64,000 bases of DNA from Candidatus Chisholmbacteria bacterium (GCA_963704905.1 CAVPHZ010000001.1:131438-195437); one strand, 5' to 3'. Counted from the stretch's first letter, positions 11,067 through 60,510 are shown. The notes: generated by a model from the sequence alone, not told the origin. Made by a program: numbers and translations.

Positions 11067-12051
11067 TCAAGCATCACTATACCATCGCTTCACTTTGTCT
11101 ACAACCTGTTGTTTGTAAGATGGATGATTGACATCAAACCAGAAGATTTGTTTATTTGTTTTAAACCAGGTTATCTGTCGGCGGACGTACGCATGTTCAT
11201 CGTTTTTCCAATTTGAAATAACTGATTCTCTGCTGGATCTGTGCTCAACATATGGCTTCCACTGGCGATATCCCATCGCCGACATGGATGGGAGATCAAA
11301 TGTGTATCCTTTATTTAAGTAAATTATTTACCTCTTCCTCAGCGCCTTCCCTTAGCCTGCGTTCAACGCGATCATCTATCCTCATAAATAAATATTTTTT
11401 CTCGGCTGTTAATCCGATCCACAACGTTTTATCTGCACTTCGAATTTTTTTTAATCTCACATGTTTTCCTTTTTCTTTATATTCAGAAATTTCGATTGCC
11501 CTGATGAGTCTTCTGGGATTTTTCCGATCTGATTGATTCATTGTCTGAAATCGTTCTGATTCTATTTGTATTAAAATTTTTTGAAGATCTTTAACAGATT
11601 TATTCGAGAGTTGATCTCGTAATTTCTCGTTTGGGGGAATGTGTATTGTGTCTATTGATCTCGTGATTGCTTGCAAATATAACCCAGTTCCACCAACAAT
11701 AATAGGGAGTTTATTTCTTTCCCAAATATCATTAAGCACTACAGTTGCGAAGTTAATGAAATGAGCGACGCTGAATTCTTCATCTGGATCTACAAGGTTA
11801 TACCCCCAGATCTTGGTGCTATTGTTGAAATAAGGGATACCTTTTCCACCCCATTGGAGATGTGAAGTAAGGGGTTTGAAACTTTTTGGGATATCTTTCC
11901 CAGTCCCAATATTCATACCTTTGTATACCTGGCGAGAGTCAGCAGAAATAATTTCACCGTTGAATTTTTTTGCAAGAAGCAATCCTAGAGATGTTTTTCC
12001 GGTTGCTGTGGGGCCACAAACAATGAGAAATTTTTTCATTCGATCAAACAA
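11067..12051 (-). CDS. miaA: tRNA dimethylallyltransferase MiaA, split by an apparent frameshift near 11310-11330
   Basis: P-loop CGPTATGKTS. The AMGYRQ and RRQITWFK MiaA motifs lie in the downstream 72-aa frame. 246+72 aa equals normal MiaA length. Confidence 0.8.
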
Positions 12052-13210
12052 TTATTGGACGCTGATTTAGGTTATCTTTGTTGATTATTTGATCCAGAAT
12101 CTCCCAGCGTCTTTTCTTCTCTTGAGGAGAAATGTCATCTTTAAAGATTCTCCAGGCGGCTGTTCCAGGACGAGGGGAATATTGCGCAACGAAGCCAACT
12201 TTCCAGTCAATTGTTTTTGCTAACTCTACTGTTCTTTCAAAATCCTTCCGGGTTTCTCCTGGAAAACCAACAATGATATCCGTACCGATTACAACATCCG
12301 GCACTTTTTTGCGCAATTTTTGTACTAGTTTTATGTAATCTTCTCTTGTATATCCACGGTTCATTCTTTTGAGTACTTTATTGCTTCCTGATTGAACAGG
12401 GAGATGTATATAGCGGTCTATTTTATAATTATTAGCAATTTCATCAATGAGTTCATCATGAAAATCCCAGGGATTGCTGGTTATAAAACGGATAATTTTA
12501 ATTCCATTAATTTTTGAGATCTGTTGAAGTAATTGTACAAATGGAGGTGTGCCGTTTGGTTTTAGATATTGACTTTGATTGGTCGGAAGATCTTTACGTT
12601 TAAATTTATTATCCCTATCCATGAGAAGTTTACGAAAGCCAATTCCGACTTTCTCAAGTCCCCATGAGTTAACATTCATTCCTAAAAGAGTTACTTCTGA
12701 ATACCCCACCTTAGCGAGTCCATTTATTTCTTCAAGAATATCTTTCTCTGGTCTACTTTTTTCACGCCCGCGTGAGTAGGGCACAATACAAAATGTGCAA
12801 AATGAGTTACAACCAGTTGAGATGGGTACCCAAGCGTGGTTTTTGTCTTTACGTATTGCTTGAGAATTAAACCCAACTTCCCCGACAGGCAATATTTCAT
12901 CGACAATTGGAAGCAGTTCGTAGATCTTCGTTTTTCCATGATGCGTCATGCAACCGGTAAAAATAATCTTTGGTTTTTTCTTCTTTGACTTAATGAAGTG
13001 TAGTTTTACATTTCTTAAGAAACCTTGGGCTCGATCTTCTGCTCTTTGCCTGACTGCACAAGTGTTTACCACAATTTCATCAGCAGATTTCCAAGACTTT
13101 GCTGGTTGATAACCACGGGCGTGATAATCTCCCTCAATTCTTTCTGAATCTGACTTATTCTGTTGACAACCAAATGTTTTGATGAAGTATGTTTTTCTTC
13201 TGGCTTTCAT
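12044..13210 (-). CDS. miaB: tRNA-i6A37 methylthiotransferase MiaB (radical SAM)
   Basis: MTTase N-terminal Cys triad (FGCQQN...NTCAVRQ...TGCM) and radical SAM GCNSFCTFC. Adjacent to miaA. Confidence 0.85.
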   Translation of the reverse strand: MKARRKTYFIKTFGCQQNKSDSERIEGDYHARGYQPAKSWKSADEIVVNTCAVRQRAEDRAQGFLRNVKLHFIKSKKKKPKIIFTGCMTHHGKTKIYELLPIVDEILPVGEVGFNSQAIRKDKNHAWVPISTGCNSFCTFCIVPYSRGREKSRPEKDILEEINGLAKVGYSEVTLLGMNVNSWGLEKVGIGFRKLLMDRDNKFKRKDLPTNQSQYLKPNGTPPFVQLLQQISKINGIKIIRFITSNPWDFHDELIDEIANNYKIDRYIHLPVQSGSNKVLKRMNRGYTREDYIKLVQKLRKKVPDVVIGTDIIVGFPGETRKDFERTVELAKTIDWKVGFVAQYSPRPGTAAWRIFKDDISPQEKKRRWEILDQIINKDNLNQRPIIV

Positions 13211-26808: not shown

Positions 26809-27205
26809 CTACTAGAGTTCCAGCAATTTTATCGTGCCAAGTTTGTTTTTTCTCATCCCAAATTGCCCAAAAATATCCTAATCCAAACACGATCGCTGAA
26901 ACAAACTTACCGATGGCTTCTCTAAGGAATGCTTTAGTTACAGTGAGCGGTTGCAAGTCGGTATCGACTACGACGAGTCCTAGTGCCATTTTCCCTGGAG
27001 TTGCACCTTTTTTAGCTAAAAATCCTACGTAATATAGTAGGTTGAGTACAATTGAAATACTAAAAACTCCAAGTGACATTAATGTACTTGTCGTATCTGC
27101 TAGATCGGGAACAGTTGCTGAACCTAAACCAGCTGCAATTGATGCAATTATTGAAATCGTGAAATTGACAGAACCAATAATCAATCCGTCAATTAATACT
27201 GCCAC
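26783..27205 (-). CDS. RDD family membrane protein (probably longer at the N-terminus, see findings)
   Basis: C-terminal TWHDKIAGTLVV RDD motif. The upstream in-frame sequence YGGVLKRFVAVLIDGL belongs to the RDD domain but no ATG precedes it. Confidence 0.55.
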   Translation of the reverse strand: MAVLIDGLIIGSVNFTISIIASIAAGLGSATVPDLADTTSTLMSLGVFSISIVLNLLYYVGFLAKKGATPGKMALGLVVVDTDLQPLTVTKAFLREAIGKFVSAIVFGLGYFWAIWDEKKQTWHDKIAGTLVVEKNSLSS

Positions 27206-27504
27206 AAATCGTTTTAAAACACCTCCATATACAACAGTGCTGGAGTTTGTTTTTTCAGGTTGTGATGGAGACTGATCGTTTTGTTGTGGCTCCTGATTTT
27301 GATTTTCTTCCTTAGGAGCGTCAGTTGGATTAGGCTCGGGCTGCTGCGTCGGTGCTTGGGTTGGCTGTTCTTCTATCTTACCTCCTCTAGATTATTTAAT
27401 CATACCCTCGTGTTAGAATACAAGACATCGAGATGTTCTATGCTGGAAGTACTCATTTAACCAGCGCTAGTTAGAATGAAATAAACGGATTGCTGGTTTA
27501 CATT

Positions 27505-27575
27505 CGGGGCATGGTCTAGTGGTAAGATAGGCGCATGGGGTGCGTCTGACCCTGGTTCAATTCCAGGTGCCCCGA
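27505..27575 (+). tRNA. tRNA-Pro (anticodon GGG)
   Basis: Cloverleaf by eye: acceptor CGGGGCA/TGCCCCG, D-arm with GG, anticodon stem GGCGC/GCGTC, loop ATGGGGT (U33, GGG, G37), T-arm CCTGG TTCAATT CCAGG. Confidence 0.8.
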
Positions 27576-27675
27576 CTATCATTTCGGCTAATGAGTGTGT
27601 ATATTATCGTTCCCTACTTTTCGGTAGGAAGAAATCCGGGCAGCTGATCTATCTCCCATATCTGTATCCGTAATC

Positions 27676-30060
27676 ATGAAATCTTCATATTTCAATCATC
27701 TTCTGCTCATCGTTGTATTTCTCACTGGTGCAGCAGTTCTTATTGTTGAGGTGGTAGCAACCCGGATTCTCTCTCCATACTTCGGGAATACTATTTATAC
27801 CTTCTCAAGTGTGATTGGAGTGATTTTGGCTGCATTAAGTTTGGGATATTATTTTGGCGGTAGGCTAGCTGATCAAAATCCAACTCTCAGATGGTTTTTT
27901 GGAATTATATATAGTGCTGGACTGAGCATTTTTTTTCTTGAGACTCTGATTATTTTTCAGCTTCCTATCTTTGGCTACAAATTTACTATTCTCACCGGAC
28001 CGTTATTCTCCTCGTTGATACTCTTTTTTCTCCCAAGCACTATACTTGGGTCTTTATCGCCTTATGCGATAGCACTTTTGAATAAACATTCTCCAAAACA
28101 AGGTGTTGGAACGACGTCCGGACTTGTCTTTTTTTGGTCCACAATTGGAAGTATTGTTGGAAGCTTGCTGACAGGATTTTATCTTATTCCAACCTTTGGC
28201 GTTCATCAAATCATATTTTCTGTAGGAGCGTTGCTGCTGGTTATTAGTCTGCTTGGTTTACTTGGTGCTGGAGTGCGACGCAAAGTTATGTTTCAACTAA
28301 TTACTGTTTCAGCGTTGGTTATGGTTCTGGTGCTTTCGTTTGTGCTCTCGATTCATCATGTCAGTGCTGTTTATGATCGCGATGGTGTTTATGAACACAT
28401 CACTATTCGTGACGGGATATTTAACAATCAACCTACTCGATTTTTTCAGCAGGATAAAAGCATGTCGGCAGCAATGTATCTCAATTCTGATGAGCATGTT
28501 TTTGACTACACAAAATATTATGCTTTGCAGACTATTTTTGTGTCAGAAGTAACGAAGGCTTTGGTGCTTGGAGGTGGAGCATATACCGTTCCAAAATCTC
28601 TTCTCAAAGATCTTCCTCAGGCTCAAATTGACGTCGTTGAGATAGAACCTTCACTTATTTCATTAGCTCAGCAGTACTTTGAGCTTGAGAATAATTCCCG
28701 ACTGACAAACTACATTCAGGATGGAAGACGGTTTCTTCACGACACGTCAAATCAATATGATCTTATCTATAGTGATGTATATTATTCAATCTTTTCTATT
28801 CCCACACATTTCACGACGAGAGAGTTTTTTCAGCTAGCCCTAGATCATCTTTCCGAAGACGGTGTATTTATTGCAAACATTATTGGAAATCTTTCAAGAC
28901 AATCACCTTCATTTCTCCTCAGCGAAATGCGGACGTTTCAGTCTGTCTTTCCCCAAACATATTTCTTTGCTGTTGATTCTCCTGGTCAAAGCCAATCACA
29001 GAACATCACCTTTGTTGGAACGACTAAAAAGGATATTGTTAATTTTTCTGATCCATATTTTCTTGATCATGAGAATCCACTTTTTCGGGAGTTGGCAGAA
29101 AAACAACTTGATGTAGACCGACTCGAACTTTCTCAAAACATTGTATTTCAAGATGATTATGCACCAGTAGATTTTTATACTTCAAAATTGCTTCAGCGTG
29201 AAACGCGCAAACCATATAACAATTTTGAAGGAGCTGAAGCGCTTGCATTGATTGAACAACAACTGCGCTACGGACCGCGTTATATTGGAAGTGAGGGGCA
29301 CAATAAAAGCGTTGATTTTATTTCCGCCGAACTTGATGCCTTAGTTGATACAGTCCACCTGCAACGCTGGCAACACTCTTCGGCGGACCAGTCTCAGATT
29401 TCGCTAACTAACATCATTGGCCGGATTCGACCAGAATTATCGCGAAGAATACTTCTGGGGACCCATTACGATAGTAAGCGATTTGCAGAGCTTGATCATG
29501 AGCACCCATTCCTCTCGGTTCCTGGTGCAAATGATTCTGCTTCCGGAACTGCAGTGCTTCTTGAACTGGCTCGCTCTTTAGCAAATTCAAACATGCAATT
29601 GAATGTTGGAGTTGATTTGGTTTTTTTTGATGGAGAGGAAGGTGAACATGACCTGTCTCATACCGAGTGGACTCCATTGGGTTCAACATATTTTTCAAAT
29701 CATCTTGATCAATATTATCCAAGAGCTCATCCTGAAAGTATGATCGTGATCGACATGGTTTGCGATAAAGATCTTACTATTTATAAAGAAGGCTCATCTG
29801 TTCAACATGCTCCTGAATTAGTTGATCGATTTTGGAGGATATCGAGTAGAACCTGGCCTGAAATATTTAAAAATCAAGTTCGCTATACCATTGGAGACGA
29901 CCACACTCCGCTTCAAATCAAGGGAATACCGAGTATGCTGATTATTGATTTTGAGTACCCTCCATTTCACACGACTGAAGACATAGCTGATAAGTGTAGT
30001 GCTGCGAGTTTGGAAGTTGTTGGTAAATCACTAGTTGATTATCTTTCTTCACTTGACTAA
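27676..30060 (+). CDS. Fusion protein: polytopic membrane domain plus spermidine-synthase-like fold plus C-terminal M28-family zinc peptidase / glutaminyl-cyclase-like domain
   Basis: N-terminal about 8 TM. Central LVLGGGAYTV...IDVVEIEP...IYSDVY aminopropyltransferase-like fold. C-terminal HYDSKR...GANDSASGTAVLLELARSL...VFFDGEEGE M28 metal-binding motifs. Confidence 0.6.
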   Translation: MKSSYFNHLLLIVVFLTGAAVLIVEVVATRILSPYFGNTIYTFSSVIGVILAALSLGYYFGGRLADQNPTLRWFFGIIYSAGLSIFFLETLIIFQLPIFGYKFTILTGPLFSSLILFFLPSTILGSLSPYAIALLNKHSPKQGVGTTSGLVFFWSTIGSIVGSLLTGFYLIPTFGVHQIIFSVGALLLVISLLGLLGAGVRRKVMFQLITVSALVMVLVLSFVLSIHHVSAVYDRDGVYEHITIRDGIFNNQPTRFFQQDKSMSAAMYLNSDEHVFDYTKYYALQTIFVSEVTKALVLGGGAYTVPKSLLKDLPQAQIDVVEIEPSLISLAQQYFELENNSRLTNYIQDGRRFLHDTSNQYDLIYSDVYYSIFSIPTHFTTREFFQLALDHLSEDGVFIANIIGNLSRQSPSFLLSEMRTFQSVFPQTYFFAVDSPGQSQSQNITFVGTTKKDIVNFSDPYFLDHENPLFRELAEKQLDVDRLELSQNIVFQDDYAPVDFYTSKLLQRETRKPYNNFEGAEALALIEQQLRYGPRYIGSEGHNKSVDFISAELDALVDTVHLQRWQHSSADQSQISLTNIIGRIRPELSRRILLGTHYDSKRFAELDHEHPFLSVPGANDSASGTAVLLELARSLANSNMQLNVGVDLVFFDGEEGEHDLSHTEWTPLGSTYFSNHLDQYYPRAHPESMIVIDMVCDKDLTIYKEGSSVQHAPELVDRFWRISSRTWPEIFKNQVRYTIGDDHTPLQIKGIPSMLIIDFEYPPFHTTEDIADKCSAASLEVVGKSLVDYLSSLD

Positions 30061-38923: not shown

Positions 38924-39943
38924 TTACTTCAATTTATAATAGCTTGACTTGGTTGTCCCTTGCCGATCGATAAAGCCTTTGCTTACCAACGCGCTTAACA
39001 AATTGTGGGCCTGTTGGCGGGATACACCAAGCTTGCGGGCAAGATCGGTAGAGGTCAATTCCGGCTGTTCTTGCATGAGCTGCAATACCTGGTCTTCTTT
39101 CTTGGTCGGCCGGTCCTTGACTGAGAGCGTCTGAGCTGCATTTTTTACCCGCGCCAACGCACCAATCAACGAATGTTTTACTCCATCGGAAAAATATTCC
39201 AGCCACTGTGTCTTGTCCCCGCTGTCAGCCGTGTGAAGCTTGTCGGAGTAGAGAGTTTTGTCGATGTCATAGTAATCATCCAGAACGAAGTACTTGTTAA
39301 TTAAATAGTCCGCCTTGATGAACACCAACGCAGTGAGTATCCGGCAGACCCGTCCGTTGCCGTCTTCGAAGGGATGGATGTAAACAAATTCGTGATGAAA
39401 GATACCAGTTTTAATAATAATGGGCAGTTTCTCGGTGCTTTCGGTCCATTCAAACAATGGACGTAAGCCTGCTTCTATTTGCTTCCGCTGATGAAAGGGA
39501 GGATCGTGTTTCACTCTGAGAGTCGCTGTCTCCTTTTCTCCGATAAATTTTCCCACCACCACTTTTCTGTTGCGGATTTCTCCGGCAGTTTTATCAACAC
39601 CCTGCAAGATGAGCTTGTGAATTTCTTTGGTGAGGTCGACGCTGAGTTTTTTTTGTTTATATTCTGTAAGCGCAGACAGGATCTGAAAGTAGTTGACGAC
39701 TTCTTTTTCATCGCGGTTCGTCGGAACCCGGTCGTCCAGCAGCAGATTGGTTACTTCCGGGAGTGTCAGCGGGTTGCCTTCAATGGCGTTACTGGCATAG
39801 GAGGATTTGATGAGATTATCCCGGTTGAGGTTGAGCTCAAGTTTTTTAGGAATGCGAAATGATTCAATCTGGCCGTAGAGCCGTTCGATTTCGGTGATGT
39901 TATTAAGCAGTGTATTGGTGAGCGTGTATTTTGGCGCTAGCAT
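38924..39943 (-). CDS. Fic family protein (AMPylation domain) with C-terminal winged HTH
   Basis: Canonical Fic motif HPFEDGNGRVCR. C-terminal LTSTDLARKLGVSRQQAHNLLSALVSKGFI wHTH. Confidence 0.85.
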   Translation of the reverse strand: MLAPKYTLTNTLLNNITEIERLYGQIESFRIPKKLELNLNRDNLIKSSYASNAIEGNPLTLPEVTNLLLDDRVPTNRDEKEVVNYFQILSALTEYKQKKLSVDLTKEIHKLILQGVDKTAGEIRNRKVVVGKFIGEKETATLRVKHDPPFHQRKQIEAGLRPLFEWTESTEKLPIIIKTGIFHHEFVYIHPFEDGNGRVCRILTALVFIKADYLINKYFVLDDYYDIDKTLYSDKLHTADSGDKTQWLEYFSDGVKHSLIGALARVKNAAQTLSVKDRPTKKEDQVLQLMQEQPELTSTDLARKLGVSRQQAHNLLSALVSKGFIDRQGTTKSSYYKLK

Positions 39944-44991: not shown

Positions 44992-45594
44992 ATGATCAGA
45001 CCAGAATTGATATCAGGGATTGAAGCGAAAGATTTAGGATTACCGATAGCTGAAATGCAGACGGCATTTCCGCTTGATGTTTATCCAGAGTTTGAGCTGA
45101 AAGGTTTCGCTGAAACGGGCCATCATCATTTTCCCAGCGTGCTCTTTGGAATTCGTCGAGGAAACGAGATAAGGCGCTATCCCCGACCTGAGATATCCAT
45201 CGGTTACGAAATTCTACCGAAATCGGCACAATTAAATTTGGAGATTTATTTTGATAATTTTGGAAACCCGATCGCCGCACCTCGGGCTTTTACGCTTATT
45301 ATTGAAAACTCGAGAAGGCGTATCCTTCACAAACTTCGAAACGCCCCAAAAGGCACGAGAATGGGATATCATAGTCCTGAAATTTCTGCTCTTTCGATTG
45401 CATTACCTGATACGAGATATACATTTGAACCTCGACCAGAAGAACCCGGACTACAAACATTTGCCTTAACTAGAGCAACTCTAGATAGTCCACCACAGTC
45501 TAATCTCTTACTTACTTTTAAAGAAGTTGATAGCGATGGTTTTGAACTGCTTCCGAATTCTTGGACAGTCTTGGAAGACAATTTATTTACTTAA
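44992..45594 (+). CDS. Hypothetical protein (last gene of GC-rich island)
   Basis: 200-aa ORF, GC-rich, no motif. Confidence 0.35.
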   Translation: MIRPELISGIEAKDLGLPIAEMQTAFPLDVYPEFELKGFAETGHHHFPSVLFGIRRGNEIRRYPRPEISIGYEILPKSAQLNLEIYFDNFGNPIAAPRAFTLIIENSRRRILHKLRNAPKGTRMGYHSPEISALSIALPDTRYTFEPRPEEPGLQTFALTRATLDSPPQSNLLLTFKEVDSDGFELLPNSWTVLEDNLFT

Positions 45595-45802: not shown

Positions 45803-46321
45803 ATGAAGAAAAAGTCTCGCAAGAGGAAAGCAATCTATGCCTTCATCGATAGTCAAAACCTCAGCCTAGGAGTGAAAAGCCTTGGGTGGAATCTCGATTT
45901 TGCAAAATTCAGAGTGTATCTCCGCGATAAATACAAGGTTGAGAAAGCGTACTTGTTTATCGGTCATGTTCCTGGAAATGAAAAACTTTATACCCACTTA
46001 CAAGAATCCGGGTATGTGGTTGTGTTTAAACCAACGCTTGAATATCGAAAAGGGAAGAAGGTTTTTACCAAGGGCAACGTGGATGCCGAATTGGTTCTCC
46101 ATACGATGATCAACCTCAAAACATTCCATAAAGCCATCATTGTCTCGGGGGATGGAGACTTCCATTGCCTTGTCGAGTATCTTCACAGCCAGAAGAAATT
46201 GGAAAAAATTATCGTGCCGAACAGCAAGTATTCTTCGCTGCTTCGAAAATTTGCTCAATATATCGTGCCGGTGGAGCTGTTTAAAAGCAAAGTAAAAGAA
46301 ACGAGAACATCCAGACAATAA
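45803..46321 (+). CDS. NYN-domain (LabA-like) protein
   Basis: AFIDSQNL...GNVDAELV...SGDGDF acidic residues in NYN nuclease spacing. Confidence 0.6.
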   Translation: MKKKSRKRKAIYAFIDSQNLSLGVKSLGWNLDFAKFRVYLRDKYKVEKAYLFIGHVPGNEKLYTHLQESGYVVVFKPTLEYRKGKKVFTKGNVDAELVLHTMINLKTFHKAIIVSGDGDFHCLVEYLHSQKKLEKIIVPNSKYSSLLRKFAQYIVPVELFKSKVKETRTSRQ

Positions 46322-46549
46322 AAAGAGAGGCATTCCCTCGGGACGGAACCCTTTGGTAGTCCTCTCATCGTGATGTCATTATTATAGCAGGTTGCAACAA
46401 CTTTTTCTTCTATGTTCAGTATTCTTTATTCAATATTCTATTAATCCTCTGTTGCCTGTCATACACCAGAAAACGAATACATTAATCACCTTTGGGATAC
46501 TTACCTGACATTAGACACTCTTGGGGATGCTGGCAGAGGTTTTTCGATA

Positions 46550-47059
46550 ATGCCATTTCATATTTTGTTCATGCTCGCATTGCAGTATAAAGTCTTAAGA
46601 ATAAACAAAATTTACGGAAAAGAATGTAAACTAATATTTTGTACTTCTGGATCGAGATACAAAAAAGAACTATTAAATCCAGCTCTATCCGTTTTTGACC
46701 TTGCGTTACTTAGCGAAAAGCATCTTCCAGAGTTTTTTCAGCTGATTGGTTTAGATGAAGACACAATAAGAACTATTAAGAAATTCATCAACTATCGAAA
46801 TGACAATCTCGCACATCCAAAGGGCGGAATTGAACAAAATCCTGAAGCAAGGATCACATCCTACATCGAAGTTCTTAAAAATATTCAGATCTTTATGCTT
46901 AGTCTAAACAACAAGGTTGCTAAAAAATGGATTGGTGAGATGGATCCTGGAGAAGCGGGAGTTGAATATATCGATCTGCATTTGGCAGAGGAATTTCTTT
47001 GTCCAGCTGACATGCAACAGGGTGAATTAGCGGAATTAGATAATAGATTAAACCACTAA
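46550..47059 (+). CDS. Hypothetical protein
   Basis: 169-aa ORF in AT-rich accessory island. No motif recognised. Confidence 0.35.
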   Translation: MPFHILFMLALQYKVLRINKIYGKECKLIFCTSGSRYKKELLNPALSVFDLALLSEKHLPEFFQLIGLDEDTIRTIKKFINYRNDNLAHPKGGIEQNPEARITSYIEVLKNIQIFMLSLNNKVAKKWIGEMDPGEAGVEYIDLHLAEEFLCPADMQQGELAELDNRLNH

Positions 47060-47180
47060 ACTTAATAATCAGATTATTTAACGACATTTACAAAACGAGG
47101 AGTCCTCCTCATCAATGTTGATAATCTCTCGAGAACGTAAAAACGTCCCAGGTACCCTGGGACTAAATTTTCCAGATCTC

Positions 47181-47200
47181 GTTTTTTCTGAAATTTCTCC
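47181..47200 (+). repeat. Island motif copy 1 (GTTTTTTCTGAAATTTCTCC)
   Basis: Core TTCTGAAAWTTCT, 25 nt upstream of TGCTATAAT and 66 nt upstream of the ATG at 47266. Confidence 0.7.
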
Positions 47201-47265
47201 CGTTTCCCCAAGTTTTGCTATAATACCCGAACTATATACGAATATTAATCGGTTCAGCCGTATTT

Positions 47266-47874
47266 ATGAAAATAAAAGGTTACTATCCGGACAAATTTTC
47301 CGAACATTTCTCTGTATTCGTGAGAAATGCTGAAAAAATTTCAGGTGCAATTTGGAAATCAGAAGAGATAAATGGTTCAAAAAAGAAAGTGGTCTCTTTT
47401 ACAGGACATCTTTCAGAGGAGGCTTTAAAAAATATTCCAGAAGATATCCGGTCTATTTTTTTAATATTTGTTTCTTTTGAAGTAATGTTTGACGAGGTAG
47501 CATATACTTACTTCCCGCTTGATTATCAATACTTTCAATCATTGACGTTGTTTCCTAAGTACTACTTTTGTGGACATGGACCTGTGGGCGAAGGAAGTCC
47601 TTTTGGTATTTACTTCTTGTTACCCAAACAATTCAGAATATTTTCTAAAAGAAGAACTTATCTAAAACAAGGACCACCGCAAGTTCAGAAAGCATACAAG
47701 ACTTATAAAGAATGTAGCAGAGAGTTTATCACATACATGAATGATTTCCTCAGCAAGCATACATTTACTGAAATGACCATGAGAAGAGTTAAAACAGTTA
47801 TTTTAAATGACAAAGATATATATAGAAATGTCTATGGAAGAGTCTTTCAATCAATTTTAAAGAATACGTTTTGA
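47266..47874 (+). CDS. Hypothetical protein
   Basis: 202-aa ORF preceded by repeat motif copy 1 and TGCTATAAT. Confidence 0.4.
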   Translation: MKIKGYYPDKFSEHFSVFVRNAEKISGAIWKSEEINGSKKKVVSFTGHLSEEALKNIPEDIRSIFLIFVSFEVMFDEVAYTYFPLDYQYFQSLTLFPKYYFCGHGPVGEGSPFGIYFLLPKQFRIFSKRRTYLKQGPPQVQKAYKTYKECSREFITYMNDFLSKHTFTEMTMRRVKTVILNDKDIYRNVYGRVFQSILKNTF

Positions 47875-47931
47875 TCAGGATCTCACAAGTTTGGAAGTTA
47901 ATACTTATTTACAACACTACCTTCCAAAAAT

Positions 47932-48615
47932 ATGCAAGAATATCCAATTGAAGTCATCGATAATCACATAACAATAAATATTAACGATAAAAAAGTGCTG
48001 CTTGATACAGGCTCTCCAAATAGCATCGGTAAATTTCAAAATATAAAACTTTTAGGCAAAGAATATACACTTTCAGATAATTTCATGGGAATCGATATTT
48101 TTCAGATATCAAATTTTATAGACAGAGATATTGATGCAATGTTGGGTGGGGATATTCTAAGAGAGTACTATTTTGTGATTGACTGGCAAAAACGGTTATT
48201 CAAGCTTTCCACGGAACAAATTTCTTTTGAAGGAATAGAAGTTCTGATTAAAGTAGCAATGAACATTCCGGTTGTAAATATCAAGATTAATAAAAAGTCT
48301 GTTAAAACATTTTTAGACACAGGTGCAAAAATATCCTACGTGGACCCATCAATTACTAATAAATATGATTCTATTGGAGAAGTTACTGATTATTATCCAG
48401 CCTTTGGCCAGTTCGAAACATCTATTTTTAAAATTCCCGTTTTTTTAGCAGAAAAAAATATTGATTTGGTATTTGGAACACTCCCTGATTCACTACAAAA
48501 TTCATTAATGATGGCAGGAACCCAAGGAATATTAGGAAATGATGTTTTTAACTATTTCAGTATATATTTTGAATTGTCGAGGGAACGTATATTTATGAAG
48601 GAAGTAGTTGATTAA
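47932..48615 (+). CDS. Two-lobed aspartyl protease-like protein (two DTG motifs)
   Basis: LLDTGSPNSIG and FLDTGAKISYV about 110 aa apart, like a pepsin/retropepsin fold. Confidence 0.45.
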   Translation: MQEYPIEVIDNHITININDKKVLLDTGSPNSIGKFQNIKLLGKEYTLSDNFMGIDIFQISNFIDRDIDAMLGGDILREYYFVIDWQKRLFKLSTEQISFEGIEVLIKVAMNIPVVNIKINKKSVKTFLDTGAKISYVDPSITNKYDSIGEVTDYYPAFGQFETSIFKIPVFLAEKNIDLVFGTLPDSLQNSLMMAGTQGILGNDVFNYFSIYFELSRERIFMKEVVD

Positions 48616-48660
48616 TTTAACCAGTTAGGCTTTTTAAATGCTGATTTTTATCTACATCTC

Positions 48661-48682
48661 GTTTTTTTCTGAAATTTCTCGG
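48661..48682 (+). repeat. Island motif copy 2 (GTTTTTTTCTGAAATTTCTCGG)
   Basis: Shares the extended ATCTCGTTTTTTCTGAAATTTCTC with copy 1. Upstream of the NERD gene. Confidence 0.7.
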
Positions 48683-48738
48683 ATGTCCTTCTTTTCTTTG
48701 TAATTACGTTCTTTCTTAATACCGTCTATGATATTAGT

Positions 48739-49467
48739 ATGAGCCGGTTTTTTGGAGGGGATAGTCAGTACTTAGTTCGGCAAAAGCAAAGACACAAACG
48801 AATATTGCTTCTTATCTTGATTGTTTCTCTTGCTATTTCAATTGCTATACCAATATTAAGTTTTCGTTATCGAAAGTTGCAGTATTTAAGTTATCCTCTT
48901 GCTGCATTTTCATTTGTTGGTTATCTTTGGATGAAAAAGACCGGCGACAAAAAGCTTCATTCAGCGCGCAGTTATGCAAAAGGAGCAAAAGGGGAAAAGA
49001 ACATTGGTTTGCTTTTACGCCGTTTGCCTGATGATTACCTTGTATTTCAAGATATCAAGCTTGAAAAAGATTCGGGAAATATCGATTTTGTAGTGGTCGG
49101 ACGCAAAGGCGTTTATGCAATAGAGGTCAAAAGCCATGCAGGAAATATCACGTATGAGAATGGACAGCTACTGCGGAATGGAAAATCATTGGAAACAGAT
49201 TTTCTCAAACAGACGATGAGTGAAGCCATGAATCTTCATGGTTTCTTATTAACAAAGTTGGGTAAAGACCTCTTTGTTTATCCAGTTCTTGTCTTCTCGC
49301 ATTGGAAAGCGCAAGTAAGATTTGGCGAAAAACCAATTGAGAAGGTTTACATTGTTCAATACCGCTGGCTGATAAATTTGATCACTGATCTAGAATCACA
49401 ATCTCACCACGCTCTTAATCAAGATGAGCTCAGCCAGATGCTAGAACCTCACCTCCATGAAGCTTGA
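48739..49467 (+). CDS. NERD-domain nuclease-related protein with N-terminal TM
   Basis: KGAKGEKNIGLLLRRLPDDYLVFQDIKLEKDSGNIDFVVVGRKGVYAIEVKSHAG matches the NERD core. Confidence 0.6.
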   Translation: MSRFFGGDSQYLVRQKQRHKRILLLILIVSLAISIAIPILSFRYRKLQYLSYPLAAFSFVGYLWMKKTGDKKLHSARSYAKGAKGEKNIGLLLRRLPDDYLVFQDIKLEKDSGNIDFVVVGRKGVYAIEVKSHAGNITYENGQLLRNGKSLETDFLKQTMSEAMNLHGFLLTKLGKDLFVYPVLVFSHWKAQVRFGEKPIEKVYIVQYRWLINLITDLESQSHHALNQDELSQMLEPHLHEA

Positions 49468-49502
49468 CACACCAGGAGTGGAATTCTCTTGACACATCGA
49501 AG

Positions 49503-49520
49503 CGTTTTCTGAAAATTCTC
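49503..49520 (+). repeat. Island motif copy 3 (CGTTTTCTGAAAATTCTC)
   Basis: Preceded by TTGACA. Upstream of brnT. Confidence 0.7.
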
Positions 49521-49622
49521 TTTTTTCTTATCCTCTTCATATCTAAATGTACAAAGTGTTATATAATTTATACCCATATCTTGATATGGCTATAATCATG
49601 GTAAACTATACAGAATAACTTT

Positions 49623-49907
49623 ATGATGAAAGTTCGTTTCGAATGGGATGAAGAGAAAAATAGAATTAATAAACGAAAGCATAAAGTTTCGTTTCAGGAA
49701 GCTCAATACGCTTTTTTGGATCCGGACAGAATTATTGCTGAGGATAGACAACATAGTGATGACGAGAAACGATATTACTGTTTTGGTGAGGTGAAAGGAG
49801 GTGTGTTGACCGTTCGTTTCACCTATCGAAAAAATAAAATTAGAATTATCGGCGCCGGTTATTGGCGCCAGGGTAAAAAGATTTATGAAAAAGAACATAA
49901 ACTATAG
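49623..49907 (+). CDS. brnT: BrnT-family (DUF497) ribonuclease toxin
   Basis: FEWDEEKNRINKRKHKVSFQEA...RIISARKA-like ending IRIIGAGYWRQGKKIY. Confidence 0.7.
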   Translation: MMKVRFEWDEEKNRINKRKHKVSFQEAQYAFLDPDRIIAEDRQHSDDEKRYYCFGEVKGGVLTVRFTYRKNKIRIIGAGYWRQGKKIYEKEHKL

Positions 49908-50109
49908 TGATGAGCCAATCAATGCGAAGGTGATTAAAGACTTTCTCCCTAAACCTGAAGACTTGGTCTTTAAAGAGGAAAAGGTGAAGGTCACGTTGTC
50001 ATTGTCGAAACGGAGTGTTGACTTTTTTAAGAAGGTTTCTCAGAGGCAAGGTACCGCCTATCAAGCTATGATTCGCAGGCTTCTCGATTACTACGTGGCT
50101 CAGCAGTAG
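49885..50109 (+). CDS. brnA: BrnA-family antitoxin
   Basis: Overlaps the brnT 3' end. 74 aa. C-terminal RHH-like segment. Canonical BrnT-BrnA order. Confidence 0.55.
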   Translation: MKKNINYSDEPINAKVIKDFLPKPEDLVFKEEKVKVTLSLSKRSVDFFKKVSQRQGTAYQAMIRRLLDYYVAQQ

Positions 50110-50142
50110 CTTTGACAGAAGAGATTTGAGTATTTACATCTT

Positions 50143-50160
50143 GTTTTTCTGAAAATTCTG
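50143..50160 (+). repeat. Island motif copy 4 (GTTTTTCTGAAAATTCTG)
   Basis: Upstream of the P-loop kinase gene. Confidence 0.7.
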
Positions 50161-50252
50161 TCTTTTCTTTATTTCGCTTCTAATCTTAATTTAAGCTAGT
50201 ATATTTTTTTTATCTCCTATGTTTAATAGCTTATCGAGTATAATCGTGGTTA

Positions 50253-50771
50253 ATGCAGTATCTTGCGATTATTCGGGGAGCTCCAGCGAGTGGCAAGTCG
50301 ACGATTGCCAAGAAATTACGGGATTTTAAAAAACGCGTGGTTTGGCTTAAAGTCGATAACTTTAAAGATTTCTTTGTGGCTGAAGCAACGCTTACGGAAC
50401 AACGGTTTGTCGATGAGTGTGCTCTTGCTAGTTTGAACTACCTTTTGGATGAGGGTTTTTCTGTTGTCATGGAAAAAATCTTTTACGATACTTCTATCAT
50501 TCCGCTTGCAGTTGAAGCCGCAAAAAAACGAGGTATTCCTGTTCAAGTTTTTCAGCTTACTTGTCCTTTAAAGGCCCTTCAATCAAGAGACAGAAACAGG
50601 CCGGGAATAAAAGAAGGTTGTCGAAAGTTGATGGGAGATGAGGTAATTGCGAAGATTTATGCTCAGCTTGAAAAAACATTTTATCCCGGTGCTTTTTCTT
50701 TGGATACGGAGAAATATTTGATTGAAGAGTGCATAGCAATCATCCATAAAAAATTAAGGATGAAAAATTAA
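50253..50771 (+). CDS. P-loop NTPase/kinase (AAA_33 / zeta-toxin-like fold)
   Basis: Walker A GAPASGKST near the N-terminus. 172 aa. Confidence 0.55.
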   Translation: MQYLAIIRGAPASGKSTIAKKLRDFKKRVVWLKVDNFKDFFVAEATLTEQRFVDECALASLNYLLDEGFSVVMEKIFYDTSIIPLAVEAAKKRGIPVQVFQLTCPLKALQSRDRNRPGIKEGCRKLMGDEVIAKIYAQLEKTFYPGAFSLDTEKYLIEECIAIIHKKLRMKN

Positions 50772-50830
50772 CCTCTTTTACCTGTTGAGATCGTTCTAGT
50801 TATCTCCTATGGTTTCTTTAATTCTCGTCA

Positions 50831-50845
50831 CTTCTGAAATTTCTG
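50831..50845 (+). repeat. Island motif copy 5 (CTTCTGAAATTTCTG)
   Basis: Upstream of the 50899 gene. Followed by TCTTT as in copy 4. Confidence 0.65.
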
Positions 50846-50898
50846 TCTTTAGGATGTTTTATATCTTTTTATCTGGTTCTGTCTGGTAAAATTCACTT

Positions 50899-51486
50899 GT
50901 GAAAAAGAAGACCCGCATCGCTTGGCAAAGCAGAGAACCAAAGTTTCCCAAACAAGGACTGGTGGTTGCTGTCTGGCTGCAGGGACCTGATATGGATCAG
51001 GCATTCCCGCTGCCTCTTTCGCTGCTAATTTCTGATCTTGGTCTTGTTCATGATTATGTGCTTACCTTTAAAAAGGAGGTTCGGATGCGGGATGCAAAGA
51101 TTTCTTTCTTGGATGATGTGCTTTTACAAACCGTTGAGTTTGACCGGCTGGTCCCGCTGAGACGCGTGTATTGGCAATCGCCAACCGTCCATGTTGATGG
51201 GATGCAGCGCATGAGCGTTTTTACAAAAATGTTCCGCCATTTTTCTTTTTATCAGCTCCTGGTTACACCCAATGAGTTTGTGGGTGAGCTTGAGACCTTT
51301 TCGGTTGGCTTTCCGTTTTTGACGACTTCTGTTGACACGATTTTGGATCCATTTTTACGCAGTTCAGATCTCTCGGTTGATCCAACCGCTAAACACGCCG
51401 CGCTCTACGTACCGCAAGAACCTGTTGGCTACAATTGGATAAAACATGAATATGTAAAGAAAAGCCGTGTATCAAATAAGAAATAA
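50899..51486 (+). CDS. Hypothetical protein
   Basis: 195-aa ORF preceded by repeat copy 5. No motif. Confidence 0.35.
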   Translation: MKKKTRIAWQSREPKFPKQGLVVAVWLQGPDMDQAFPLPLSLLISDLGLVHDYVLTFKKEVRMRDAKISFLDDVLLQTVEFDRLVPLRRVYWQSPTVHVDGMQRMSVFTKMFRHFSFYQLLVTPNEFVGELETFSVGFPFLTTSVDTILDPFLRSSDLSVDPTAKHAALYVPQEPVGYNWIKHEYVKKSRVSNKK

Positions 51487-51516
51487 TCTGAAAGCTAATG
51501 TTTTCTGGATTTGGTT

Positions 51517-51534
51517 TCTTCTGAAATTTCTCGC
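51517..51534 (+). repeat. Island motif copy 6 (TCTTCTGAAATTTCTCGC)
   Basis: 30 nt upstream of the TGATATACT extended -10 of the GxxExxY gene. Confidence 0.7.
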
Positions 51535-51566
51535 TTTTGTTTTTTCTTAACTGATATACTGTTTAT

Positions 51567-52032
51567 ATGGAAAAAGACATTGAGAAACTGGTTACTGTAT
51601 TAAAAGACTCCGCGAAGAAGGTGTATGCGGAGCTGGGGCCAGGGTGGAAAGAGGAAATCTATCAAAAGGCGATGGAGGTGGCGCTGCGGCATGAGAGTAT
51701 TTTGTACGAAACACAGCGAATTCTCCCCATTACGTTTTCCGATCATGTCATTGGAGAAGCAATTCCTGACTTGGTTCTTTGGATAACTCGTAGAGGAGAA
51801 GAAAATTGCCTTTGTCGTTGACTTGAAGGCGGAACCGGGTCTCAAGGAAGAGCATGGCGTCCAAGTTCAACGGTATATTCAAGAACTGCGGAAACAAGTC
51901 CATCAGAAAAAGCATGAAGTGTATGCAAAAGGATTAGTGATTAACTTCGTGAAGGAAAAAACCAGCAAAAAGCTCCCTGAGGAAGAGTTTGAAGACCTCA
52001 ATGGCGTGCAGGTTTTGGAAGTCGAGGCATAG
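51567..52032 (+). CDS. GxxExxY-family protein (PD-(D/E)XK-like), split by an apparent frameshift at about 51800-51825
   Basis: GPGWKEEIYQKAM (GxxExxY). The downstream frame carries KIAFVVDLKAEPGLKEEH...GLVINF, the family C-terminal motif. Confidence 0.65.
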
Positions 52033-52062
52033 CCTTCTTCTGACAGTCTCAGTGATATTCGT

Positions 52063-52692
52063 CTATAGTTCTAGAATGTCCTTTTCTCCGCTGGGCTCGT
52101 TAATTTGCAGCCTTAGGTTGGCGTCTGATTCGTTGATAGCAAATCCAACTCGTGTGAATTTATCACTATTTGACTCCAACTCCACCGGGTCATTGTGTAT
52201 GTCGGGGGCCACCCAGTTTTCTTGGTTGTTGACCGACAATCGTATGTAATCTTTGGTGTTAACGTTTGTAATCGCATCATTGTTGGAATTGAGTTTGAGA
52301 TTGACTATTAAAAACTCTCTGCCTGATACTGCAGTTGCTCTTTTTCCCTGAACGATTACTTCATTTATTCTTTGATAATCTACGAGTGTGATTTTTATTT
52401 CTCCTGCTGTTTCGCCATTGTCGTCTGTGATGGGGAAGACGTACTCTTTGTTTATGTCTGTCGGTTGCGGCTTTTGCGTTGGTGCGGCAGTTGTTATAGG
52501 AGTGATTGTTGGAACGAGCGATACCTCTTCCTCTGCGGTTTGATTTTCCTGTGACATTGATTTAAATGCTTGAAGTTGACCAAACAAATAAAATGCTAGT
52601 CCCGAAGTAGCGATGAGTAGCAGGAGCAGAATAAAGACGAGTATCCAGGCGAAATTGCTTGCTTGCCTTTCACCTTGTTTTACTTCTTCCAT
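52063..52692 (-). CDS. DUF4352-like secreted/membrane-anchored protein
   Basis: N-terminal TM and Thr/Pro linker. The C-terminal domain is paralogous to the 55539-56186 gene. Confidence 0.5.
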   Translation of the reverse strand: MEEVKQGERQASNFAWILVFILLLLLIATSGLAFYLFGQLQAFKSMSQENQTAEEEVSLVPTITPITTAAPTQKPQPTDINKEYVFPITDDNGETAGEIKITLVDYQRINEVIVQGKRATAVSGREFLIVNLKLNSNNDAITNVNTKDYIRLSVNNQENWVAPDIHNDPVELESNSDKFTRVGFAINESDANLRLQINEPSGEKDILEL

Positions 52693-52762
52693 CTATTGTT
52701 TCTCAAATATATTTGGGCGAATTCTAACATAAATGATCTATTAATTTAGAATGGGCATTTAC

Positions 52763-52780
52763 TCTTTTCTGAAAATTCTA
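52763..52780 (+). repeat. Island motif copy 7 (CTTTTCTGAAAATTCTAT)
   Basis: Upstream of the zinc-ribbon gene. Confidence 0.65.
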
Positions 52781-52821
52781 TTTTTTCTTTCCGATTTTGA
52801 TTTTTACTTAATATTGCTGTC

Positions 52822-53204
52822 TTGGTTTATTCCGGGACTGAAAAGGGCTACCATGGAGGTATGGAGAATTCTCTTTCCTGCTTTCAATGCCACACTGAAG
52901 TTCACGAGGGTGATTATTTTTGTTCAAACTGCGGAAAAACCTTAAACCCGCACCTCCGTCTACCTCTGTGGAAAGGCAGATCTGATTGTACTTGGGAAGC
53001 TTTCTTCTCCCCCCTTTCGGGATCTTCTGGGGTCTGCGATACCTTCGACAGCCGGATACACAATCGAGGAAAGTTGGGATCATTGCCATTGGGCTGACGA
53101 GTGTTGCACTGCTGTTGGCTGTTAAGCTGACGGTGGATTTGATTGCCATGGTGAATGGAGTCAATTCGCAGTACATGCAGGAACTTCAACAGCTTGGTTA
53201 CTAA
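52822..53204 (+). CDS. Zinc-ribbon domain protein with C-terminal TM, apparently split across two frames near 52986-53017
   Basis: CFQCHTEVHEGDYFCSNCGK zinc ribbon in the first frame. The hydrophobic VGIIAIGLTSVALLLAVKL segment is in a frame that opens at 52986. A C6-7 run lies at the junction. Confidence 0.4.
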
Positions 53205-55538: not shown

Positions 55539-56186
55539 TTAATACGTTTCAAGGACAAGCTGGTCTTTATCCCCTTCCAGTTCGCCAACGTATAAGATCA
55601 AGTTGGTATCCGTTTCGTTGATTGAAAATGCCATGCGGACACTTTTCGTCGACTTCGGCTGGATTTCGACCGGATCACTATGAAACTCTGGGGCTAACAG
55701 TTTTTCTTGTTCATTGACTCTGAGTCTGAGATAGTCGCGTGCATTAATTTGAATGGCTCTGTTGAATTGATTGGTCAGCTCAATATTGATGACGACAAGT
55801 TCTTTCCCTTCTATTGTTGTAGCTTTGCCACCAGCAATTGTTACCTCATTTGTTCTTTCATAATTAGTTACAACAAAAAGGAGTTGGCTCACCGTTTCTC
55901 CGGATGCATTCCTCAGCGGGAAGGAATATTGTTTATTTATCAGCCGAACTGCCGGGGTTGGTGAAGGGATAATGGTTGGCGTGGGAAGGGAGGGTGTGGA
56001 GATTCCGCTGTTTGATCTGTCTGATACTGACTTGCTGTTTCGGTTTTGCTCGTTTAAGAGATACAAGATGATTCCTACCGTGATGATGAGTAAAGTTAGC
56101 AGAATAGCGACAATTACCCAAGGTAAATTGTTTTCTTTTTGATCACTTAGATGTTGATTCTGGTTTGCGGGTTCTGATCCATCCAT
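55539..56186 (-). CDS. DUF4352-like protein, paralog of the 52063-52692 gene
   Basis: Same architecture. Shared motifs include the NEV[TI]..G[GK][RK]AT..[ES]G[KR]E[LF][LV][IV][VI]N and [FH][HN][SD]DPVE[IL] blocks. Confidence 0.5.
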   Translation of the reverse strand: MDGSEPANQNQHLSDQKENNLPWVIVAILLTLLIITVGIILYLLNEQNRNSKSVSDRSNSGISTPSLPTPTIIPSPTPAVRLINKQYSFPLRNASGETVSQLLFVVTNYERTNEVTIAGGKATTIEGKELVVINIELTNQFNRAIQINARDYLRLRVNEQEKLLAPEFHSDPVEIQPKSTKSVRMAFSINETDTNLILYVGELEGDKDQLVLETY

Positions 56187-59637: not shown

Positions 59638-60510
59638 ATGCGCGGTGATAAATATAGTGCATTGTGGGTTTCTCATTCCTCAATCGGAGATTTTCAAAAG
59701 TGTCCACGGGCATATTTTTTGCATAATGTGTATAAAGACCCTCAGTCAGGCAATAAGCTTACCCTGATGACACCGCCTCTGGCTCTGGGTCAGACTGTAC
59801 ATGACGTGATTGAATCTCTCAGTGTGCTCCCGGTTGAAAAACGATTTATTGAGCCACTCGTATCAAAGTTTGAACAGGCTTGGAAAAAAGTCGAAGGGAA
59901 AAAAGGCGGTTTTCCTAGCATTCTCGTGGAAAATCAATATAAAGAGCGAGGCAGAGCCATGCTCAAGCGCGTACTTGATCATCCGGGTCCGCTGAAGAAT
60001 TTAGCAGTTAAGATTAATATGGATCTGCCATATTTTTGGTTATCCGAGGAAGACAATATTATTTTGTGCGGGAGGATTGACTGGCTGGAGTACTTCCAGG
60101 ATTCCGATCAAGTTCATATCATCGATTTCAAAACCGGAAAGTCTGAGGAAGATGCCCGGTCACTGCAGCTACCGATCTATCATCTGCTAGTCCGAAATTG
60201 TCAGCCTCGCAAGGTGCAAAAGGTGAGTTTTTGGTATTTAAACCGAAACAATTCCCCAAGTGAACAACCACTACCAAATTTAAATAAATCGCAAGAAAAG
60301 ATTCTGGCGATAGCGAAAAAAATTAAACTCGCACGACAGTTGAATCGGTTAACCTGCACACACCAAAATGGCTGCCGATCCTGTCGTCCTTATGAAGCTA
60401 TCCTCCGCGGAGAAGCGGAATATGTTGGAATCAATGACTTCAGACAGGATGTCTATGTGAATTTAGATACGGAGTCTTCTGAGGAAAAACGCGGGAGTGT
60501 GATTTTGTAA
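59638..60510 (+). CDS. PD-(D/E)XK nuclease, Cas4/RecB-like with Fe-S cysteine cluster
   Basis: N-terminal QKCPRAY. Core IIDFKTGK. C-terminal CTHQNGCRSC, i.e. the one-plus-three Cys arrangement of Cas4/AddB nuclease domains. Confidence 0.5.
   Translation: MRGDKYSALWVSHSSIGDFQKCPRAYFLHNVYKDPQSGNKLTLMTPPLALGQTVHDVIESLSVLPVEKRFIEPLVSKFEQAWKKVEGKKGGFPSILVENQYKERGRAMLKRVLDHPGPLKNLAVKINMDLPYFWLSEEDNIILCGRIDWLEYFQDSDQVHIIDFKTGKSEEDARSLQLPIYHLLVRNCQPRKVQKVSFWYLNRNNSPSEQPLPNLNKSQEKILAIAKKIKLARQLNRLTCTHQNGCRSCRPYEAILRGEAEYVGINDFRQDVYVNLDTESSEEKRGSVIL

Follow-up and report, generated by a model that had tools for sequence, protein, structure and literature searches.

A 13-nt direct repeat at the module junctions of a toxin- and nuclease-rich accessory array in a Candidatus Chisholmbacteria genome

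In integrons and in clusters of attC sites lacking the integron integrase (CALINs), co-oriented small genes of unrelated function, toxin–antitoxin (TA) pairs among them, are each followed by a site. The attC sites are imperfect inverted repeats of 57-141 bp (R''-L''/L'-R') that fold into hairpins and carry a GTTRRRY core. The integrase IntI is absent from CALINs by definition, and integron cassettes are mostly promoterless and ~0.5-1.5 kb long. Recombinase-less segments bounded by short reiterated sites are also known from cis-mobilizable elements (CIMEs), tandem accretion at att sites and Xer-dependent pdif modules. The att and dif sites consist of two inverted recombinase-binding arms around a spacer, and pdif sites alternate in orientation. 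Ordinary defence islands have no regular repeat between modules; defence and TA-rich islands have also been reported in Patescibacteria (PMC12455944). Here, a 64-kb stretch of DNA from a Candidatus Chisholmbacteria genome (CAVPHZ010000001.1:131438-195437; hereafter the window) was analysed, in which an array of small, mostly plus-strand genes is divided into modules by seven copies of a 13-nt repeat. Open reading frames (ORFs) in the window were read by eye, with minimum lengths of 50 aa (43-55.5 kb), 120 aa (27-64 kb) and 180 aa (0-27 kb).

The array resembles integrons and CALINs in its co-oriented, unrelated small genes including a TA pair, in the site that follows each of them and, as in a CALIN, in having no integrase nearby. 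It differs from them in its linear 13-nt core, which has neither the attC hairpin nor R and L boxes, and in genes that carry promoters of their own. Segments bounded by short reiterated sites without a recombinase are shared with CIMEs, att accretions and pdif modules; however, no inverted arms are visible at the repeats of the window and all copies are direct. The features shared with defence and TA-rich islands are NYN, HEPN-like, NERD and PD-(D/E)XK proteins, a zeta-like kinase, a BrnTA pair, low conservation and a partly low GC content, but no complete known system was recognised in the array, and it has no mobility genes. As accessory cargo the genes are ordinary, whereas the repeat-delimited modular layout is unusual.

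The 13-nt repeat and its position

The repeat core (TTCTGAAAWTTCT) occurs in seven exact copies versus 0.07 expected, all on the plus strand and all intergenic. The cores start at 47186, 48667, 49507, 50147, 50832, 51519 and 52767, and the element lies entirely within 47.17-52.79 kb; no further copy in the 64 kb was detected with a profile derived from the seven. With their flanks, the copies lie at 47166-47207 (copy 1, core TTCTGAAATTTCT at 47186-47198, 37 bits), 48645-48690 (copy 2, core 48667-48679), 49486-49529 (copy 3, core TTCTGAAAATTCT at 49507-49519), 50127-50170 (copy 4, core 50147-50159), 50812-50853 (copy 5, core 50832-50844), 51500-51542 (copy 6, core 51519-51531) and 52747-52790 (copy 7, core 52767-52779), the last in the divergent spacer between a 209-aa gene and a zinc-ribbon gene. 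Twelve of the 13 core positions are invariant across the seven copies, and the remaining one is either A or T. A left arm of ~12 nt (ACATCTCG and a T-run) is significantly alike in only three to four copies, and the likeness of the copies at 47186, 48667, 50147 and 52767 exceeds that of shuffled controls. The right flank is merely T/C-rich, with the adjacent positions near random. The invariance of the core next to a decayed right flank and a left arm kept in three to four copies indicates selection on the core. A one-mismatch version (TCCTGAAATTTCT) lies at 45375-45387 inside a 200-aa ORF (44992-45594); about one such match is expected by chance and the profile does not detect it, and it was not counted as a member of the repeat.

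The copies split the DNA into six modules of 1481, 840, 640, 685, 687 and 1248 nt, each with a same-oriented copy on either side. They precede the units that begin at 47266, 48739, 49623, 50253, 50899 and 51567 and a further gene outside the originally delimited island (start at 52822 or 52862). Two genes, encoding an NYN-domain protein and a 169-aa protein, lie upstream of copy 1, and copy 7 lies beyond the island as first delimited. The original prediction had proposed a motif shared upstream of the island genes. The motif is real and stronger than had been described, but it is absent before the NYN gene, the 169-aa gene and a protease gene that is the second gene of module 1. The core lies 33-61 nt after the preceding stop codon in five copies, 48-116 nt before the following start codon and 23-79 nt upstream of the gene-proximal extended -10 boxes.

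Extended -10 boxes (TGnTAnAAT) stand 6-9 nt before the start codon in ~11 of the 72 window genes. Such genes across the window (e.g. 12044-13210(-), 13265, 42638, 45803, 50899, 51567 and 62312) have no Shine-Dalgarno sequence, a combination that points to frequent leaderless mRNAs in this genome of the candidate phyla radiation (CPR). Within the array, the NYN gene has its own TGGTAGAAT box 6 nt before the ATG, the kinase gene a TATAAT box 8 nt before the ATG, the 195-aa gene a TGGTAAAAT box 6 nt before the GTG and the PDDEXK_3 gene a TGATATACT box 6 nt before the ATG; at 48739, the extended -10 position is taken by a weaker TATGAT. Since the repeat lies 23-79 nt upstream of the -10 boxes, it is not the core promoter of the genes. 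Its spacing to the stop codons and the -10 boxes, together with the native promoter type of these boxes, argues that the repeat is a separate element at the module junctions. A reading of the motif as a sigma-70 -35 or -10 box was rejected because the spacings vary: an upstream TTnACA-like hexamer stands 12-16 nt from the GAAAWT part of the core, which is too short and too variable, and the gene-proximal -10 boxes stand at 23-79 nt. A reading as attC sites or other hairpins was rejected as well, the DNA folds of the seven spacers having z-scores of -2.0 to +0.5 relative to shuffled controls and no shared hairpin. No paired RYYYAAC/GTTRRRY core sites were seen in the spacers, and the repeat matches no family in Rfam.

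Proposed stepwise accretion and competing explanations

The function of the repeats could not be settled. The reading that is favoured, tentatively, is a lineage-specific accessory array to which modules were added stepwise at a reiterated protein-recognition site. The array comprises two upstream genes of RNase type (NYN and a possible HEPN) followed by the six repeat-bounded modules of 640-1481 bp. The modules may well be autonomous, at least four genes having, 6-8 nt ahead of the start codon, an extended -10 box that appears to be the host's own leaderless-type promoter. Judged from their sequences, the module proteins would also act independently, BrnTA as an addiction module and the nucleases, the kinase and the protease as stand-alone proteins such as toxin or abortive-infection cargo contains. 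Site-specific insertion would add one module at a time and leave a regenerated site on either side of it, in the manner of a cassette array or of tandem accretion at att sites, and the recombinase would be encoded outside the 64-kb window. Accretion is favoured because the independent evolution of an identical 13-mer in seven foreign genes is difficult to envisage, and because the position of the repeat is not tied to promoters. It is further supported by modules that have unrelated functions and differ in GC (0.32-0.44), by genes that are orphans or singletons or that have relatives on plasmids, by protease homologs in neighbourhoods that are unrelated and lack the motif, and by the eroded look of two genes at its right-hand end (PDDEXK_3 and zinc-ribbon).

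Several points weigh against stepwise accretion. No integrase, transposase or other recombinase is readable among the ORFs of the 64-kb window, and the repeat has neither the inverted arms nor the hairpin of attC, dif and most tyrosine-recombinase sites. Mobility is wholly inferred, since the searches turned up no other genome that carries the array. One gene of module 6 has a paralog in the same genome, which is an awkward fit with captured cargo. GC at third codon positions (GC3) is spread as widely among native genes as among island genes, so that composition is no proof of separate acquisitions. Finally, the copies stand one-to-one with seven plus-strand units at 47.2-53.2 kb, which fits a shared regulatory site equally well. 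A more doubtful proposal is that the repeats are the recombination sites of an undescribed, non-integron gene-capture system in CPR bacteria, in which a recombinase from another part of the 773-kb genome would act on a short, linear site with no hairpin and stack autonomous, promoter-bearing toxin or defence modules into an array.

A shared operator is possible and nearly as likely as accretion. The 13-nt element would then bind one transcription factor, for example the RHH antitoxin BrnA or a regulator encoded elsewhere, and the seven units would form a single stress or abortive-infection regulon. Every plus-strand unit, from the one at 47266 up to the zinc-ribbon gene, has exactly one copy in front of it, at 48-116 nt from the start, and the core contains overlapping short palindromes (TTTC-T-GAAA and GAAATTTC) of the size bound by dimeric factors. 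A promoter-like site (TTGACA-16-GAAAAT, 49489-49516) overlaps the copy before brnT. The core also resembles the CodY box AATTTTCWGAAAATT, a string that occurs in the literature (e.g. PMC5314169): of its 15 positions, 13 are matched by the A-variant copies and 12 by the T-variants, and the TTTTC-W-GAAAA palindrome is common to all. However, this resemblance is one of sequence only, the consensus is that of Firmicutes, and the sites lie in one 5.6-kb array rather than across a global regulon. No literature ties CodY to Patescibacteria, and no CodY gene is among the window ORFs read. The operator is also at odds with the lack of a constant promoter architecture around the core, with a 13-mer that as a whole is not palindromic and with the single orientation of all copies. 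An identical 13-mer would moreover have to evolve seven times in unrelated genes, and the island encodes no DNA-binding regulator except BrnA. The co-regulation that the original prediction had drawn from the shared motif is thus weakened: there is one motif per unit, but its distance to the -10 boxes varies from 23 to 79 nt, a poor geometry for a shared promoter or operator.

It is unlikely that the repeat is a transcription boundary or an RNA element, such as a hairpin-less or factor-dependent terminator, an insulator or a transcript site for an RNase of the island. Its position is most regular with respect to the preceding stop codon (in the five copies noted above), modules 1-5 have no canonical intrinsic terminators, the repeat is embedded in T-runs, and a repeat with the same 12-nt core stands at gene 3' ends in the metagenome contigs L250 and L276. 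However, the spacers have no conserved secondary structure and the repeat no Rfam family. Copy 1 comes after a canonical hairpin terminator and would be superfluous as a second one, copy 7 comes after the 5' end of a gene on the minus strand, and none of the ~60 other gene ends of the window has the motif.

A relic of segmental duplication, in which one ancestral spacer was copied and the 13-mer is its slowest-decaying, functionless remnant, is improbable. The left-arm likeness of four copies above shuffled controls is consistent with duplication, but a remnant is hard to reconcile with 12 of the 13 core positions being invariant in all seven copies next to positions that are near random, and the genes between the copies have no similarity to each other. 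An attC-based cassette array, whether a classical integron or a CALIN, would suit the same-strand small cassettes of 0.6-1.5 kb, the TA cassette and the many genes of unknown function, but it is effectively excluded by the absent attC structure (neither an imperfect hairpin of attC type nor paired core sites), with no IntI among the window ORFs read and cassettes that carry their own promoters.

Genes and proteins of the array

The region at 45.8-52.0 kb contains ten plus-strand genes in nine units, followed by one minus-strand gene. The ORFs and coordinates of the original prediction agree with the ORF reading, whereas its count of eight plus-strand units becomes nine. Its description of an AT-rich island holds for ~46.5-50.8 kb (GC 0.32-0.39) but not for 50.8-52.7 kb (GC 0.42-0.44; window 0.41). 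Hidden Markov model (HMM) searches confirmed most of the domains that had been read from the sequence, namely the NYN, NERD, BrnT, P-loop kinase and GxxExxY calls, with BrnA just below its cut-off; the transmembrane (TM) anchor of the NERD protein agrees with two hydrophobic stretches in its sequence. The two-DTG aspartyl protease call, marginal in Pfam, is upheld by invariant motifs and a predicted structure.

The two genes upstream of the first repeat would both encode RNases. The first (45803-46321, +) encodes an NYN-domain, LabA-like nuclease (E 1.5e-14 in Pfam, 2.6e-12 in PADLOC), and the second (46550-47059, +) a 169-aa protein that is possibly a HEPN-type RNase. The 169-aa protein contains RNDNLAH, an Rx5H motif, and its HMM matches are sub-threshold: the best Pfam match is HEPN_RiboL-PSP (E 0.015, below the cut-off), and the C-terminal region of MzaB is matched weakly (E 0.005; PADLOC, NCBIfam). 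Just 5' of the first repeat, a hairpin with an 8-bp stem of which six pairs are G-C, and with a T-rich tail (47145-47163, +), forms the terminator-like end of the 169-aa gene.

Module 1 begins with an orphan gene (47266-47874, +; GC 0.32) for a 202-aa protein that matches only itself among 5.8e9 clusters and no family in Pfam, PADLOC, PHROG or NCBIfam. The second gene (47932-48615, +) starts 57 nt after the orphan and encodes a 227-aa protein, predicted to be a single-chain, two-lobed aspartic protease. Only five relatives were found among the 5.8e9 clusters, indicating a very rare family of ~225 aa. The catalytic motifs D25-T-G and D129-T-G, one per lobe, are invariant in all six family members. 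The AlphaFold 2 (AF2) model has a predicted local distance difference test score (pLDDT) of 93.7. Foldseek comparisons of the model gave 252 matches in the PDB at E ≤ 1e-3, and all 50 of the matches listed are aspartic proteases or a putative endopeptidase; among them are pepsins, plasmepsins, renin, tethered HIV-1 protease dimers and the Bacteroides fragilis endopeptidase 9iy9. By its motifs and modelled fold, the protein is a bilobal clan AA aspartic protease, with a predicted activity. Two DTG motifs and a bilobal fold are common to this protein, the pepsin-like (A1) enzymes and single-chain retropepsin pseudo-dimers; however, pepsins have ~325 aa compared with 227 aa here, and the identity is 10-14%. 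The neighbourhoods of the protease homologs are unrelated and have no repeat motif. The homolog in one contig (L244, 10001-10669) follows a gene for a VWA protein, and that in another (L245, 6886-7569) follows genes for a 123-aa protein and a PDDEXK_4 protein. The 202-aa gene was considered as a partner of the protease and rejected, since it is not conserved beside the protease homologs.

Module 2 consists of the gene for the NERD-domain protein (48739-49467, +; Pfam E 4.3e-20). Two hydrophobic N-terminal helices are seen in its sequence (residues ~22-42 and ~50-65), and it has domain-level matches to the NERD regions of PglW and MAD6 (PADLOC, NCBIfam). Module 3 carries the BrnT/BrnA pair (49623-50109, +), with brnT at 49623-49907 and brnA at 49885-50109. 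As in described type II BrnT/BrnA systems, the toxin gene comes first, the two genes overlap (by 23 nt) and the match of BrnT to its HMM is strong (PF04365, 89.9 bits with a cut-off of 34.5; E 1.3e-25). The pair differs from them in that BrnA is slightly below the Pfam cut-off (PF14384, 23.3 bits with a cut-off of 26.1; E 8.4e-5). The identity of BrnA is supported by its position, the overlap and a plasmid match annotated as copG. This match covers 49572-49907 (brnT and part of brnA), which is 66% identical at the DNA level to brnT/copG pairs on plasmids of Candidatus Megaera polyxenophila, and brnTA is the only part of the island with a DNA-level match in the plasmid collection.

The gene of module 4 (50253-50771, +) encodes a stand-alone P-loop kinase with the motif GAPASGKST, similar to Zeta_toxin (E 4.6e-8), AAA_33 (E 7.1e-8) and polynucleotide kinases. 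Its score against the zeta model PF06414 is 33.2 bits (cut-off 22.3), and the AAA_33 and polynucleotide-kinase models score equally well. An epsilon antitoxin was not found upstream, the 143-nt spacer at 50110-50252 having no plus-strand ORF of at least 50 aa. Module 5 contains a gene with a GTG start (50899-51486, +) for a 195-aa protein. It belongs to a widespread uncharacterised family with ~210 representative clusters at 50% identity and a uniform length of ~190-200 aa, for which there is no model in Pfam, NCBIfam or PHROG; one stray Chalcone_N match was seen in one of 45 members. Structure prediction gave a confident fold (AF2, pLDDT 94) but no counterpart, as Foldseek found no match in the PDB or BFVD, and no PDB sequence match was found either.

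Module 6 holds two convergent genes. The first (51567-52032, +), previously described as a GxxExxY PD-(D/E)XK-like gene, does belong to the PDDEXK_3 nuclease family (E 5.4e-13 as assembled), but in the assembly a 1-nt frameshift splits it within an A-run near 51805-51810 (region 51790-51825). Removal of one A restores a 154-aa protein that matches positions 4-108 of the 117 in the profile PF13366 (E 3.9e-19, 69.6 bits). The frameshift is either that of a true pseudogene or a homopolymer error of the long-read assembly. The second gene (52063-52692, -) encodes a membrane-anchored protein of 209 aa. It had been assigned to DUF4352 (PF11611), an assignment that is not supported, the protein having no Pfam match at E ≤ 1. 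A paralog 3 kb downstream (55539-56186, -) is 38% identical and has a weak match to DUF5067 (E 0.0026); the 209-aa gene therefore belongs to a family duplicated within the genome. Both proteins have a membrane anchor, a linker rich in Pro and Thr and, at the C-terminus, a beta-rich domain, and they appear to be a native surface-protein family. On the 3' side of the last repeat, outside the island as first delimited, lies a zinc-ribbon/TM gene of a conserved CPR family (52862-53204, +; start 52822/52862). It is broken at two points, an A5 run with a frameshift (~52935) and an in-frame TGA (52981-52983). The rebuilt protein can be aligned over its whole length with an intact homolog of 117 aa in another contig (L003, 18883-19236), which has Gly at the position of the TGA.

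No complete known anti-phage system was found with PADLOC-DB v2 and NCBIfam, which returned isolated domain matches: NYN, the NERD parts of PglW and MAD6, and the weak MzaB match. An accessory, toxin- and nuclease-rich cargo is well supported, with the 202-aa orphan, the singleton proteins, the rare protease and the plasmid-related brnTA. The defence island that had been proposed is no more than plausible.

Host, relatives and biological meaning

The host looks like a Microgenomates-type CPR (Patescibacteria) bacterium on the basis of its sequence. The best relatives of a flanking class I methyltransferase have 48-62% identity and come from metagenome-assembled genomes of Levybacteria, Roizmanbacteria and Gottesmanbacteria. 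The nearest available genomes share only this methyltransferase with the locus, with no island gene beside it; the comparative evidence is thin because there is no close sequenced relative. All six of the island proteins looked up are singletons at 90% identity among ~15 billion proteins. Exact look-ups of window proteins returned two short fragments of the same strain in Logan (ERR12037370) and nothing else. The island had no match to phages, and a phage or plasmid origin of the island was rejected, given that only brnTA matches plasmids.

Scans of viral contigs for the core gave, among the matches listed, only single chance hits. A 22-nt version of the repeat had 32 single matches in metagenome contigs, and the sole multi-copy case was the overlapping contigs L250 (cores at 293, 528, 2213, 2395 and 2633) and L276 (180, 418 and 1789). 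These contigs contain six same-strand copies of TCTGAAAATTCTTAATTC at gene ends. The 12-nt core is common to TCTGAAAATTCTTAATTC and the repeat of the window, and the element is longer. In two unrelated ORFs, TCTGAAAATTCTTAATTC encodes the C-terminus ...SENS and the stop codon. The contigs are taken to be thaumarchaeal from their PEFG-CTERM-like proteins, and their repeat is treated as a curiosity, a different element for which no homology is claimed.

Elsewhere in the window, the cumulative GC skew has its minimum at ~27-29 kb, a tRNA-Pro gene lies at 27505-27576, and the genes are all on the minus strand at 0-27.2 kb and mostly on the plus strand from 27.7 kb. This pattern suggests a replication origin at 27000-27700, ~20 kb from the array. 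No more than 7-8 kb away from the array are genes for a Fic/DOC protein with a C-terminal winged-helix domain (38924-39943, -) and for a PDDEXK_1/Cas4-like nuclease with a C-terminal Cys cluster (59638-60510, +). Thus, toxin and nuclease genes are not confined to the island as first delimited.

CPR bacteria have tiny genomes and are mostly uncultured, and how they acquire and control accessory and defence genes is poorly understood. Should the repeat turn out to be an ordinary operator, what remains is a small TA and nuclease island of the usual type. Two of the proteins are leads in themselves, the rare 227-aa single-chain aspartic protease and the 195-aa protein of a widespread family, whose predicted fold is unmatched in the PDB and BFVD. 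A regular array with an invariant 13-nt site would point either to a new mechanism of cassette capture or to a simple way of wiring foreign genes into one circuit.

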